This document shows, in pieces, positions 17,503-51,419 of a stretch of 64,000 bases of DNA. The stretch spans positions 896,001 to 960,000 of the forward strand of contig BK006941.2 of assembly GCA_000146045.2 (NCBI GenBank), written 5' to 3'. The stretch comes from TPA_inf: Saccharomyces (lineage: Eukaryota). Made by a program: the position numbers and the translations under genes. Each line of letters begins with the position of its first letter. The first letter of the stretch is position 1. The notes beneath the pieces are model-generated. The model did not search any database and was not told the DNA's origin. It worked only from the letters and a program-made list of their open reading frames with translations.

Positions 17503-18738
17503 TTATGCTGATCTTGGAGCGATCTTGAAGCCGAGTATGTCATTCTTACCGGGCTCAACAAGACTTTCTTCACTGACTCTCACGCCGCCAACGGTTTCAA
17601 TGCTTGCAATGGTGACCTCGCCACCCATGATATACCTGGCAACTTTGCCAACAGGGGTTCCTCGCTTGACCAAAAAACAATCTCTAAATACGTTGGTTCC
17701 GTTGCCACCCGTAAAAGTCTGGATGTTCTTCACAGTGTACACCGGTATTAGACCAAGGATGTCCGTTGCTGCTTGCAGAACCTGAACAACACCCGTAGAT
17801 CCGAATCTATACAGGACCAAATCTCTGATATTTTCAATTCTGTTAAGGATCTTGTCGTCCAGTGGCTTTAGTTTGTCTGGCTCGTCCTCAAATGTGTCAA
17901 CAAATTCCGTGCCCTCCTCGTATAATATAAAACCTTGCTTTTTCAATTTCCTCAAAAAAACTTCCGTCACTGCACTGGTCAGTACAGCTTTGGTGTCAGG
18001 ATACTTTAGCATGATTTTAGAAACATTTTTATCGGCGTCAGGGTGGTCAATCTTGTTGAGTGCCAACACAGTTGGAAATTTCTCCATCATAAAGGACTTG
18101 ACCACTCGAGTGATCCATTCGTCATCCCATTTTTCCAAAGGTGGTAGTCCCTTCAACCTGTCCAGGGCTTTTTGGATCATGGGCGCATGTGAACCGTACC
18201 CACCGAATTGCGCTTGAAGTGTGTCCACTATGCTAGATTTCGTTGCTGTATGTTTACGCACAATAGACCCCCATCTTTTCTTCAGGTTCCCCTCAACCCA
18301 AAGCCTGATTTCGTCTTGCAGCCATTCTATATCGTTCAATGGATCATATCCTCTTGTGTTCTTCCCCTCTGCATCTGTGGTTCCACTAACGTCCACCACA
18401 TGAATAAGAGCATCTGCGTGTCTTAAATCATCCAAGAATTTATTTCCAAGCCCTCTGCCGGAATGCGCTCCAGGCACAAGCCCTGCCACATCCAACAGTT
18501 TGATGGGGATATGCCTCTTACCCTTGCTACACCACCCGTAGTTAGGTTTACAAAGATCTTCCTTGCCAAATCTGGAGCAAGCACACTCAACTTGCAAGTA
18601 GCCGGTTGCCTGATTTGGCTCGATCGTGGTAAAGGGAAATGCTCCTACCGCCGCACCTGCGTCCGTCAAAGAATTTAATGTGGTGGATTTCCCTGAAGAT
18701 GGCTTACCCACAATACCAATCAATGGATCCCTGGGCAT
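17503..18738 (-). CDS. Obg/DRG-like P-loop GTPase of unknown function (YGR210C), 411 aa.
   Basis: The G1 motif GKPSSGKST is at the N-terminus, and the architecture is Obg-family. Length and position match YGR210C. Confidence 0.8.
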
Positions 18739-19020
18739 ACTGGCTCTATTTCCGTTTTATTCTTACAGACAGCTTATACTACAAGTTAGTTGGACAAAAG
18801 CTAAAAGACGGAAAACGAAAACGCAAAATGAAAATAAAACCAACTCTCATTACAATTCATCCTAGAACACTTACACATCTGTTTTGCACTGCATAGCATT
18901 ACATTTCTTGCATATCTATCTATTCGAGAAAAAAAAAAAAAGGCATCGAGTGAATTTTTCACCTTGATAAAAAAGCCCTTACTAACCCTACAATAAATTG
19001 TGCCGAAACCCTCTGGAGTT

Positions 19021-19036
19021 TTCTAGAATATTCTAG
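19021..19036. promoter_or_regulatory. Canonical 3-unit heat-shock element TTCtaGAAtaTTCtag in the divergent YGR210C / ZPR1 promoter.
   Basis: There are perfect alternating nTTCnnGAAnnTTCn units. A further CTAGAAtaTCC partial unit lies about 20 bp downstream. Confidence 0.55.
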
Positions 19037-24574: not shown

Positions 24575-25788
24575 ATGTCCTTACCAGCTACTTTTGACTT
24601 GACTCCAGAAGATGCCCAACTTTTGTTGGCTGCTAACACTCACTTAGGTGCTAGAAACGTTCAAGTATGTTATACTCATTCCCGATTATATAATAGAGTA
24701 ATGTGTGATTGAAAACAGTTCGAGTGAAAGAATAGCCACAACCAGGTTTCCCGCCAACCAAACGGAATGCTGGGATAGCATTTTTCAGGCTGAATAAGAA
24801 GAGAAATATATGAACAATCATTAAAACAGTTTGAAACTCCAGCTAATTATCAGCGAATATTTTGCCAATAGACTTTCTAATTGTATTATGTTATTAAATT
24901 TTAAATCGCTAATGAAAAAAAAAAACAAACCTTTGGTATTAAACCTCTTTCAATGAAATCAATTAATTCCGGTACCTATTCTTCCGACGCTGTTAGCCAA
25001 CTATAAATGCCATTTTTTCATAGTACATTAATTTGAATCAGTTGATCATTCACAGCATATACCAAGTGTACGTTTTTGAATCTTTTATACTAACTTTTTC
25101 TTCTTTAATTTTGTTTCAGGTTCACCAAGAACCATATGTTTTCAACGCAAGACCAGATGGTGTCCACGTTATCAACGTTGGTAAGACCTGGGAAAAATTG
25201 GTTTTGGCTGCCAGAATCATCGCTGCCATTCCAAACCCAGAAGACGTTGTTGCCATCTCTTCCAGAACTTTCGGTCAAAGGGCTGTTTTGAAGTTCGCTG
25301 CCCACACCGGTGCTACCCCAATCGCCGGTAGATTCACTCCAGGTTCTTTCACCAATTATATCACCCGTTCTTTCAAGGAACCAAGATTAGTTATTGTCAC
25401 CGACCCAAGATCAGATGCTCAAGCCATCAAGGAAGCTTCTTACGTTAACATCCCTGTCATTGCTCTAACTGATCTTGACTCTCCATCAGAATTCGTCGAT
25501 GTCGCTATCCCATGTAACAACAGAGGTAAGCACTCCATTGGTTTAATCTGGTACTTATTGGCTAGAGAAGTTTTGAGACTAAGAGGTGCTTTAGTTGACA
25601 GAACTCAACCATGGTCCATCATGCCAGATTTGTACTTCTACAGAGACCCTGAAGAAGTTGAACAACAAGTTGCTGAAGAAGCTACCACCGAAGAAGCTGG
25701 TGAAGAAGAAGCCAAGGAAGAGGTTACCGAAGAGCAAGCTGAAGCTACTGAATGGGCTGAAGAAAATGCTGACAACGTCGAGTGGTAA
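24575..25788 (+). CDS. RPS0A: 40S ribosomal protein S0-A (uS2), spliced. Exon 1 is 24575..24664, the intron is 24665..25119, and exon 2 is 25120..25788, giving 252 aa.
   Basis: Exon 1 encodes [30 protein letters not shown]. The intron has a GTATGT 5' splice site at 24665, a TACTAAC branchpoint at 25088-25094 and a CAG 3' splice site at 25117-25119. Exon 2 continues [20 protein letters not shown]..., which is the uS2 family, and ends in an acidic C-terminal tail. Confidence 0.9.
24665..25119 (+). other. RPS0A: RPS0A spliceosomal intron (455 nt).
   Basis: The intron has canonical yeast signals: GUAUGU, UACUAAC and a poly-U stretch followed by CAG. Removing it restores the uS2 reading frame. 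Confidence 0.9.
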
Positions 25789-48647: not shown

Positions 48648-49144
48648 GTTAAGCACGATTTAGAAGGTGGCGAGCCTCAAAGTGTAAAGCTGCAGAAAAA
48701 ATAAACATGACTTTTAGTAATTGGCTGTTTAGCTTGCTGAATTGTGTACCACAACTAACGATAACAGTAAGAGGGTAATCCGAGACAGTATGAGTACAGC
48801 TATTAAATAGTTAATTTAGATTTTTATACTGGTATGATAAACGACGTTCATATAGCAAGAGCGTCAATGCCTCTATGTCACCTTCAATAGAAGTTTCCCT
48901 TTTTATTTCGACTTTTGTTTTTGTATTTTTCGGCGTCTGCCTTGTTCCATTTTTAAGGCGCCAAAAATAAAATAAAATGATGAACGATTAGTACTCAAAG
49001 AACACTTTAATCCTTGGAAACAAAAAAATAAAAAATCAAAAGTTGAAGGAAGGTCAAATTTTCTTCCTCCAACGATAATAATACTTGCTTATATAACTCT
49101 TTTAAAGTTTTACAAAACTTTGGATCAGAAAAAAAGAAAAAAAT

Positions 49145-51019
49145 ATGGCTACTCCCCATTTATATCACAGATATAACTCCAAAAGCTCTAACAAAAATAT
49201 CAATTCGAGCGGAAATTCTACAGAGGTTGACCGTTTCATTCCAAAATCAGTTTCGAGAAATGCTTATAAGTCTATTCCAATGTTAAATGGGTTTGACATA
49301 AGTTACTCAGAACTTTGCGAGAAATCTCCTTCACCTGAGCGGCTATCATCCCCTGAATTCTTTAACGAACTGCGAAACACCGGGCATTACGAATCAATCA
49401 GTACAACAAATGAGTTTTCCATGTCAAGTATCTCTAGCTCTTCTGAGAGTCAAGTTACCAGAAGTGGAAGTGCAAGAGCTTCAAGAAACGATTATTCAAA
49501 ATTAACTAAAGAGCAAAAGGACCATAGAAAGAATATTGCACATTCTCTTGGTTTTCAATTGCCCGACCGTGTCTTTACGTTTGAGACCACAAGTGCTGAA
49601 ATTCTGGAAAAGAATAAAGCCATCAAAAATTGCTTTGGACCAGGAAGTTGCGCCGAAATAAGATCAACCTTTGACTTTAGTACACTCTCGCCCGATGTTG
49701 CCCGTTATTATATCGCTAATTCTAACGCAAGATCAGCTTCCCCACAAAGACAAATCCAAAGACCTGCTAAACGAGTAAAGTCACATATTCCATACCGTGT
49801 ATTGGATGCACCTTGCCTGAGAAATGATTTTTATTCGAACTTAATTTCTTGGTCAAGAACCACAAACAACGTTTTGGTGGGACTGGGTTGCTCCGTATAC
49901 ATCTGGTCTGAGAAAGAAGGAGCGGTATCTATATTGGACCATCAATACTTAAGTGAAAAGAGGGATTTAGTGACATGCGTCTCATTCTGTCCTTACAATA
50001 CTTATTTTATTGTTGGTACAAAATTTGGCCGTATTCTTCTTTATGATCAAAAAGAATTTTTTCATTCCAGCAACACAAACGAAAAGGAACCAGTATTTGT
50101 TTTCCAAACTGAATCCTTCAAAGGAATATGTTGCCTAGAATGGTTCAAACCAGGTGAAATTTGCAAATTTTATGTTGGAGAGGAAAATGGCAATGTGAGC
50201 CTCTTTGAAATAAAGAGTTTGCATTTCCCCATAAAAAACTGGAGTAAAAGACAAAAACTCGAAGATGAAAATTTAATAGGATTGAAACTTCATTCCACTT
50301 ATCAAGCTCAGGCACAGCAAGTCTGTGGTACGTTATTAAGAGCTTATGCTTTCACATACCCTTTTCTGGTATAGCGCTTATTTTTTCATTATGAAAAATA
50401 CTAACAAATATTTTCTACAGGTATTTCTCTGAATGAACATGCAAACCTGCTTGCAGTCGGCGGCAATGATAATTCTTGTAGCTTATGGGATATTTCCGAC
50501 TTGGATAAACCTATTAAAAAGTTTGTTCTTCCACATAAAGCGGCTGTGAAGGCCATTGCCTTTTGTCCTTGGTCGAAGTCTTTGTTGGCTACGGGTGGTG
50601 GAAGCAAAGACAGATGTATTAAGTTTTGGCATACATCGACAGGCACATTGTTGGATGAGATTTGCACCTCGGGACAGGTGACGTCTTTGATATGGTCGTT
50701 GAGACATAAACAGATTGTTGCTACTTTTGGATTCGGTGATACCAAGAATCCTGTATTAATAACACTATACTCATATCCAAAATTATCAAAACTACTCGAA
50801 GTTAGGTCGCCCAACCCTTTGCGTGTACTGAGCGCAGTAATCTCTCCAAGTTCCATGGCAATTTGCGTTGCCACTAACGATGAAACGATAAGATTTTATG
50901 AACTGTGGAACGATAAGGAGGAAATAATTAATGAAATTCAAGAGAGTGGGATTTATGGATCTAATATTATAGAATATATGGAGGGTATCGAAACAACACA
51001 TAACAAAAGAATAAGGTAA
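49145..51019 (+). CDS. AMA1: Meiosis-specific APC/C activator (Cdc20/Fizzy family), spliced. Exon 1 is 49145..50327, the intron is 50328..50420 (93 nt), and exon 2 is 50421..51019, giving 593 aa (YGR225W).
   Basis: Exon 1 ends ...AQAQQVCG and exon 2 continues ISLNEHANLLAVGGNDNSCSLWDISDLDKP... (WD40 repeats). The intron has a GTACGT 5' splice site at 50328, TACTAAC at 50399-50405 and CAG at 50418-50420. Exon 1 is 1183 nt, so it ends with the first base of a Gly codon, and the frame is restored only by splicing. The ORF track shows the two exons as separate 409-aa and 172-aa ORFs. Confidence 0.88.
50328..50420 (+). other. AMA1: AMA1 intron (93 nt) with a non-consensus GUACGU 5' splice site and a Mer1 enhancer element.
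   Basis: The 5' splice site is GUACGU at 50328-50333. The Mer1 intronic enhancer match ATACCCTT (AYACCCUY) is at 50356-50363. The branchpoint UACUAAC is at 50399-50405, and the 3' splice site CAG is at 50418-50420. Confidence 0.85.
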
Positions 51020-51419
51020 TATAAAAAAAGGATATTCATTGCACGCACAAACCAAATACTTCAAATAGCAAACTAACAGTAAGAATATATAAAACTATAC
51101 ATACGTATACATAAAAAAATAATAGGGAAAAAAAAAGGAAACCATATGAGTTTGAATGAGGCGACGTGCCATATTAAACAATTATATTTTAACACTTCCG
51201 CACTGCACCTATTTAGTTGGCTGATTTGTGACGTTTTTAATTCCGATCGGCCTGAAACAGCGAAGGGTCCTGGAAAATTAAGATAATAAAACGAAATGAA
51301 ACCCAGCAACGTTAGATGATGCTCAAAAAAATATAGAGACAGAGAAAAACCAGAATACAAAGAGCTGTTTAAGTGGTCAATATCCCAGGTACACCGAGCC
51401 CAGTCACATCGAACTTATA

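Follow-up and report, generated by a model that had tools for sequence, protein, structure and literature searches.

The AMA1 intron of Saccharomyces cerevisiae, a known Mer1- and Nam8-dependent meiotic intron, and its counterparts in other Saccharomycetaceae

According to the literature, four pre-mRNAs of Saccharomyces cerevisiae, AMA1, MER2, MER3 and SPO22, are targets of Mer1 (PMC5602110; 2024 review PMC11585973). Mer1 activates splicing of the AMA1, MER2 and MER3 pre-mRNAs by binding to an enhancer within their introns, 5'-AYACCCUY (PMC3082912; Qiu, Schwer and Shuman 2011), and this enhancer has been placed within 18–25 nt of the 5' splice site (5'SS) (review PMC11585973). Like AMA1, the other three members of the regulon, MER2/REC107, MER3/HFM1 and SPO22/ZIP4, are meiotic genes in which AYACCCUY follows a suboptimal 5'SS and which depend on both Mer1 and Nam8 (PMC3082912, PMC11585973, PMC7969001). 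The present analysis concerns the AMA1 intron as it occurs in a stretch of 64,000 nucleotides of S. cerevisiae (assembly GCA_000146045.2, contig BK006941.2, positions 896,001 to 960,000 of the forward strand), hereafter the window, in which positions 48800–51200 of the plus strand were read together with a listing of open reading frames (ORFs), and each coordinate was checked by script. The splicing of AMA1 belongs to the small number of regulated splicing events in budding yeast that have been characterised well, and the intron serves as a standard reporter in studies of Mer1, Nam8 and pre-mRNA retention.

Compared with the other Mer1 targets, AMA1 has the mildest 5'SS defect (GUACGU, as against GUUCGU in MER2), and its branchpoint is of the consensus type. 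The loss of Npl3 is of marginal effect for AMA1, unlike for MER2 and ZIP4 (PMC7969001). Two other meiotic genes, PCH2 (Nam8 and Tgs1) and SAE3 (Tgs1), resemble AMA1 in having weak introns that need accessory factors, but they are Mer1-independent (PMC3082912); in the same paper, PCH2 is described as having a long 5' exon, as AMA1 does. Neither PCH2 nor SAE3 has a Mer1 enhancer, and PCH2 combines a consensus 5'SS with a non-consensus branchpoint, whereas in AMA1 the enhancer is present and the branchpoint follows the consensus (PMC3082912). Set beside the published S. cerevisiae AMA1 intron, the intron in the window shows no difference: the locus is the same, as is the layout of 5'SS, enhancer and branchpoint, in which no more than 25 nt separate the enhancer from the 5'SS. 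It is almost certainly the already characterised Mer1/Nam8-dependent meiotic intron. The finding is therefore already known, the window holding the reference sequence of a published example, which a preliminary description of this DNA had read correctly from the raw sequence; recognition of the known intron from its sequence adds nothing new to biology.

The gene in the window is S. cerevisiae AMA1 (YGR225W, SPO70). Its spliced product of 593 amino acids (aa) agrees at every residue with NP_011741.5, the Ama1p of S. cerevisiae S288C, and shares 99% identity with P0001, the representative of its cluster ('Ama1p [Saccharomyces cerevisiae YJM1388]'). The intron, 93 nt in length, occupies positions 50328..50420 of the plus strand, on which all of the AMA1 features given below are also located, and its excision yields an uninterrupted 593-aa Cdc20/Fizzy WD40 protein. 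It begins with the 5'SS GUACGU (GTACGT, 50328..50333), which has C for U at intron position +4. The Mer1 enhancer ATACCCTT (in RNA, AUACCCUU; 50356..50363), which fits AYACCCUY exactly, starts at nt 29 of the intron and is found 22 nt past the 5'SS hexamer and 35 nt ahead of the branchpoint, as is expected of an enhancer of the Mer1 regulon. The consensus branchpoint UACUAAC (TACTAAC, 50399..50405) has its branch A at 50404, 16 nt upstream of the intron 3' end, which is formed by the 3' splice site CAG (50418..50420). The weakening features typical of the regulon are also present, namely GUACGU instead of GUAUGU and a 5' exon of 1183 nt, the deviation of the 5'SS being mild; the length of this exon is a feature on which the preliminary description is silent. 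By direct reading, all of the coordinates given for the intron and its signals in the preliminary description are correct, and so are its statements that exon 1 ends one base into a Gly codon (Gly395) and that the unspliced transcript terminates after ...FTYPFLV (TAG, 50372..50374).

The explanation favoured here is that the AMA1 intron is poorly recognised by the U1 small nuclear ribonucleoprotein (snRNP) alone, because its 5'SS is GUACGU and its 5' exon is unusually long (1183 nt plus leader); the long 5' exon presumably contributes to the weakness of the intron. In meiosis, the KH-domain protein Mer1 is induced and binds to AUACCCUU, and, together with the U1 snRNP protein Nam8, it stabilises U1/U2 assembly, leading to efficient removal of the intron. 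In cells without Mer1, most AMA1 transcripts remain unspliced, with a coding capacity for a 409-aa product only. Full-length Ama1 is then gated by splicing on top of meiotic transcription, and control of Ama1 at both of these levels has been reported (PMC3031463).

The published evidence for this explanation is direct. In meiosis, 84% of AMA1 is spliced in the wild type and 6% in nam8-delta (PMC3082912), and in mer1-delta meiosis the splicing of AMA1 is completely blocked (PMC7969001). Ectopic Mer1 switches on the splicing of AMA1-intron reporters in vegetative cells (PMC5602110). Multi-base substitutions in the enhancer of the AMA1 intron abolished activation by Mer1 and left basal splicing unchanged, as the work of Spingola and Ares (2000) is summarised in a passage of PMC3082912. 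The experiments proposed in the preliminary description have therefore already been done, with the outcome that it predicted, and the Mer1-regulated meiotic splicing that it put forward for AMA1, along with the membership of the regulon (MER2, MER3, SPO22 and AMA1), is borne out, the proposed mechanism being the published one (PMC3082912, PMC7969001).

Several points qualify this explanation. In one of the papers the consensus 5'SS is written GUAPyGU, and GUACGU was used as the 'consensus' repair of the GUUCGU of MER2 (PMC7969001); the 5'SS of AMA1, which had been called non-consensus at the outset, merits the term in comparison with GUAUGU but not under this wider definition. The splice-site scores of AMA1 are the best among AMA1, MER2 and MER3, and its basal splicing is the highest, according to PMC3226532, in which AMA1 reporters are also quoted as being 31–32% spliced without Mer1 and 71–72% spliced with it (Scherrer and Spingola 2006). 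Since GUACGU is mild and basal splicing is about 31%, the 5'SS alone may not explain the dependence on Mer1. In vegetative ume6-delta cells, removal of Snf2 improves the splicing of AMA1 while MER1 expression is virtually unchanged (PMC5570110), and therefore competition for the spliceosome also matters for AMA1. The number of AYACCCTY motifs in the window is no greater than expected by chance (six matches against 6.25 expected, both strands), and, moreover, the claims of dependence on Mer1, Nam8 and the enhancer rest on the cited papers. No evidence collected here contradicts the Mer1/Nam8 explanation; all of these points are qualifications.

Taken together with the large 5' exons, which are one source of reliance on Nam8/Mer1 in some targets (PMC3082912), the basal splicing of the reporters, the consensus-class 5'SS and the effect of Snf2 would suit a different emphasis, in which Mer1 is a booster and not a binary switch. 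The dependence would then come mainly from a general weakness of the intron (the length of the 5' exon, the need to compete with ribosomal-protein pre-mRNAs for a spliceosome in limited supply, and the reliance on Nam8/U1), and the C at +4 would contribute little. Such a view, which would refine the Mer1/Nam8 explanation and not replace it, is considered doubtful. The complete block in mer1-delta meiosis and the 14-fold drop in nam8-delta argue against it, and on the strength of these two results the dependence at the native locus is close to absolute. Thus, the AMA1 switch is leaky in reporters and close to absolute at its native locus in meiosis, which is a small correction to the original statement that splicing is efficient only when Mer1 is expressed.

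Given that AYACCCTY occurs in the window at the chance rate, the number of motifs is in itself no evidence, and the meaning of the AMA1 motif comes from its position and conservation. It is the only one of the six matches that has a 5'SS-like site upstream and TACTAAC downstream, and when the stretch of the intron from 5'SS to branchpoint was shuffled, an exact match arose in 0.29% of 20,000 trials. An RNA structure that sequesters the 5'SS or the enhancer was also considered and was rejected, as the fold of the AMA1 intron is no better than that of its shuffles (z = −0.93). The chance-level count and the unremarkable fold are what would be expected if the intron were an ordinary constitutive one in which ATACCCTT is present by accident. 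Against this stand the rarity of an exact match between 5'SS and branchpoint (about 0.3% by shuffling), the retention of the motif and its flanks, but not of the downstream intron, in S. kudriavzevii, and the recurrence of the motif in orthologues of Lachancea and Eremothecium. The idea, which the published mutagenesis of the enhancer and the mer1-delta data have already refuted (PMC3082912, PMC5602110, PMC7969001), deserves practically no credence.

For comparison, the AMA1 loci of 12 other Saccharomycetaceae were examined, and introns were located by finding the splicing pattern that reproduced each deposited protein exactly. In 12 of the 13 species the intron is found at the same codon and in the same phase, after ...QVC|G. 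The only true loss is that of Kluyveromyces marxianus (AP014604.1, L008:1501-3264), in which AMA1 is intronless and reads through as ...SQQVCGAKICEDTKQIAIGGNDN. Ten of the 12 orthologous introns retain TACTAAC, and the 5'SS GTACGT of S. cerevisiae is identical in S. kudriavzevii, Kazachstania africana and Zygosaccharomyces rouxii. Exact AYACCCTY matches are present in S. cerevisiae and S. kudriavzevii (ATACCCTT in both, with GTACGT), in L. thermotolerans (ACACCCTC, with GTATTT, in a corrected intron model) and in E. sinecaudum (ATACCCTT, with GTAAAT); in the latter two species the enhancer lies 11–12 nt past the non-consensus 5'SS (GUAUUU and GUAAAU, respectively), the probability that this arose by chance being 0.1–1.7% per intron. 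One mismatch separates the motif from the sequences of K. africana (AGACCCTT, 5'SS GTACGT), Z. parabailii (ATACCTTT, GTATGA) and L. mirantina (ATACTCTT, GTATTT), and two mismatches from those of Z. rouxii (ATACTCGT, GTACGT) and L. lanzarotensis (AAACCTTT, GTACTT). Three mismatches are found in Nakaseomyces glabratus (TTAAACTT), Naumovozyma dairenensis (ATATTGTT, in a corrected intron model) and Tetrapisispora phaffii (TTACAATT), each of which has the 5'SS GTATGT.

Thus, among the 12 introns, exact AYACCCTY occurs only alongside a 5'SS other than GTATGT, and all three GTATGT introns are without enhancer-like sequence; the chance of an exact match, as estimated by shuffling, is 0.01–1.7% per intron. 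This pattern argues for a link between 5'SS strength and the enhancer and, hence, against the above view of Mer1 as a mere booster. It is suggestive of an enhancer whose presence tracks the weakness of the 5'SS in the AMA1 genes of Saccharomycetaceae, an observation that is mildly new and concerns 12 introns. In AMA1, the association of a weak 5'SS and a Mer1 enhancer may even be much older than Saccharomyces and may have co-evolved with 5'SS strength, a tentative proposal to which we give somewhat less than even weight. Mer1-like KH domains have been reported in L. thermotolerans, K. lactis, Z. rouxii and others (PMC3082912). If the proposal is true, Mer1-type control of AMA1 would be ancestral to Saccharomycetaceae and would have been repeatedly dismantled by strengthening of the 5'SS or by loss of the intron. 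The cross-species pattern could then serve, to a modest extent, as a natural experiment on the building and loss of a splicing-based developmental switch. A literature search on the co-evolution of enhancer and 5'SS in AMA1 found nothing specific, but its coverage was incomplete, and the observation may already be published.

A comparison of the S. cerevisiae intron with that of S. kudriavzevii shows almost no change from the 5'SS to the end of TTTCACATACCCTT, and the part from the enhancer to the branchpoint has diverged. When positions 50328-50355 were aligned with L001:2684-2717 of S. kudriavzevii, GTACGTTATTAA.AGCTTA and TTTCAC were found to be conserved, with one 6-nt insertion. The conservation from 5'SS to enhancer may reflect additional contacts, for instance with U1 or Nam8, or no more than the close relationship of the two species.

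Two of the deposited gene models in relatives are probably in error. The AMA1 protein deposited for L. thermotolerans (CU928167.1; P0015, 531 aa) implies a 396-nt intron (L010:2501-2896) with the non-canonical start GTGTGC. An alternative 84-nt intron (L010:2813-2896) at the conserved site, with GTATTT, ACACCCTC and TACTAAC, leads to a protein of 635 aa. This protein aligns over its full length with Ama1 of L. quebecensis (84% identity) and L. lanzarotensis (57%), and the deposited model is probably wrong. In N. dairenensis (HE580270.1), AMA1 (P0011, 648 aa) is annotated as intronless and reads through as MLYCSFFLFFSLLVFFTNFYNLFLLL. The gene contains an in-frame 81-nt intron (L006:2756-2836, GTATGT...TACTAAC...TAG) at the conserved phase-1 site, and its excision restores the conserved junction QQVCGISINSNNSLLAVGGNDNSC / QQVCGISIN, which points to a probable annotation error.

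The product of AMA1 is the meiosis-specific activator of the anaphase-promoting complex (APC/C) of the Cdc20/Cdh1 family. Exon 1 (49145..50327, 1183 nt, ending in phase 1 according to the ORF listing and the splice reconstruction) encodes residues 1–394 and the first base of Gly395, the codon of which is split G|GT by the intron. Exon 2 (50421..51019) encodes residues 395–593, which comprise the C-terminal WD40 blades and the terminal ...RIR with the IR tail, and carries the stop codon. The spliced protein matches the Pfam profile PF24807 (WD40_CDC20-Fz) with an E-value of 2.7e-82 and 276.8 bits (cut-off 200), the match covering residues 220–554 and positions 1–292 of the 292 in the profile, as is expected of a Cdc20/Fizzy WD40 domain. 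Because this domain spans residues 220–554, the intron interrupts the WD40 propeller. Co-activators of the Cdc20/Fizzy type have, besides a seven-bladed WD40 propeller, a C-box near the N terminus (DR[F/Y]IPxR-like) and an IR tail at the C terminus. By direct reading, Ama1 has DRFIP at residues 29–33 and terminates in ...KRIR, so both elements are found in it.

In the unspliced transcript, the ORF (49145..50374) remains open for 15 codons beyond exon 1, with the tail TLLRAYAFTYPFLV, and then stops at the in-frame TAG, giving 409 aa that end in ...AFTYPFLV. The unspliced product would be without the last propeller blades and, because the IR tail is encoded in exon 2, also without that tail, and it is presumably inactive. 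The open extension of the retained frame could alternatively be taken to mean that retention is productive, i.e., that the mRNA leaves the nucleus unspliced and is translated as a functional 409-aa N-terminal fragment which, for instance, binds Cdc20. This is highly unlikely. The tail TLLRAYAFTYPFLV is unconserved, as S. kudriavzevii has indels and substitutions in it and the intron sequence of other genera is completely different, and no report of a 409-aa protein was found. According to the title of the Scherrer and Spingola paper, as cited, Bud13p is needed for the nuclear retention of a subset of Mer1-dependent introns, and AMA1 export reporters leak more unspliced RNA in prp45(1-169) cells (PMC5602110).

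Many S. cerevisiae assemblies carry the 409-aa unspliced frame as a deposited protein (P0122 in 110 contigs and P0123 in 66 contigs, including CAA97253.1). Gene callers, therefore, often miss the AMA1 intron.

In the window, AMA1 is flanked by a gene for an MFS transporter upstream and one for a DIE2/ALG10 protein downstream, and the order of the S. kudriavzevii locus is identical. The surroundings of AMA1 depend on the lineage: DIE2/ALG10 is located downstream in Saccharomyces, N. glabratus, N. dairenensis and K. africana, and a gene of the Pex24p family is found in this position in Zygosaccharomyces, Lachancea, Kluyveromyces, Eremothecium and T. phaffii, with a PROPPIN gene upstream in most.

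The window was also scanned for introns with the pattern GTAYGT...TACTAAC...YAG, which yielded three candidates, one of them the AMA1 intron. The candidate at 18248-19026 was rejected as a chance match, since it overlaps a GTPase ORF on the minus strand. A 455-nt candidate (24665-25119) with consensus GTATGT, TACTAAC and YAG is situated just upstream of an ORF similar to ribosomal protein S0/SA (25033-25788), and, judged by its sequence, it looks like an ordinary intron of a ribosomal-protein gene. Further Mer1-type introns in the window were sought around the other five AYACCCTY matches and were rejected, none of these having both a 5'SS-like site upstream and a branchpoint downstream.

Within the 497 bp upstream of AMA1, neither the core of the middle sporulation element (MSE; CRCAAAW) nor an exact upstream repression sequence (URS1) was detected. 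A URS1-like sequence with one mismatch, TCGGCGTC, is located upstream of the gene at 48930-48937. An exact URS1 core, TCGGCGGC, is found at 50457-50464, inside exon 2 of AMA1 and 37 nt past the 3' splice site.

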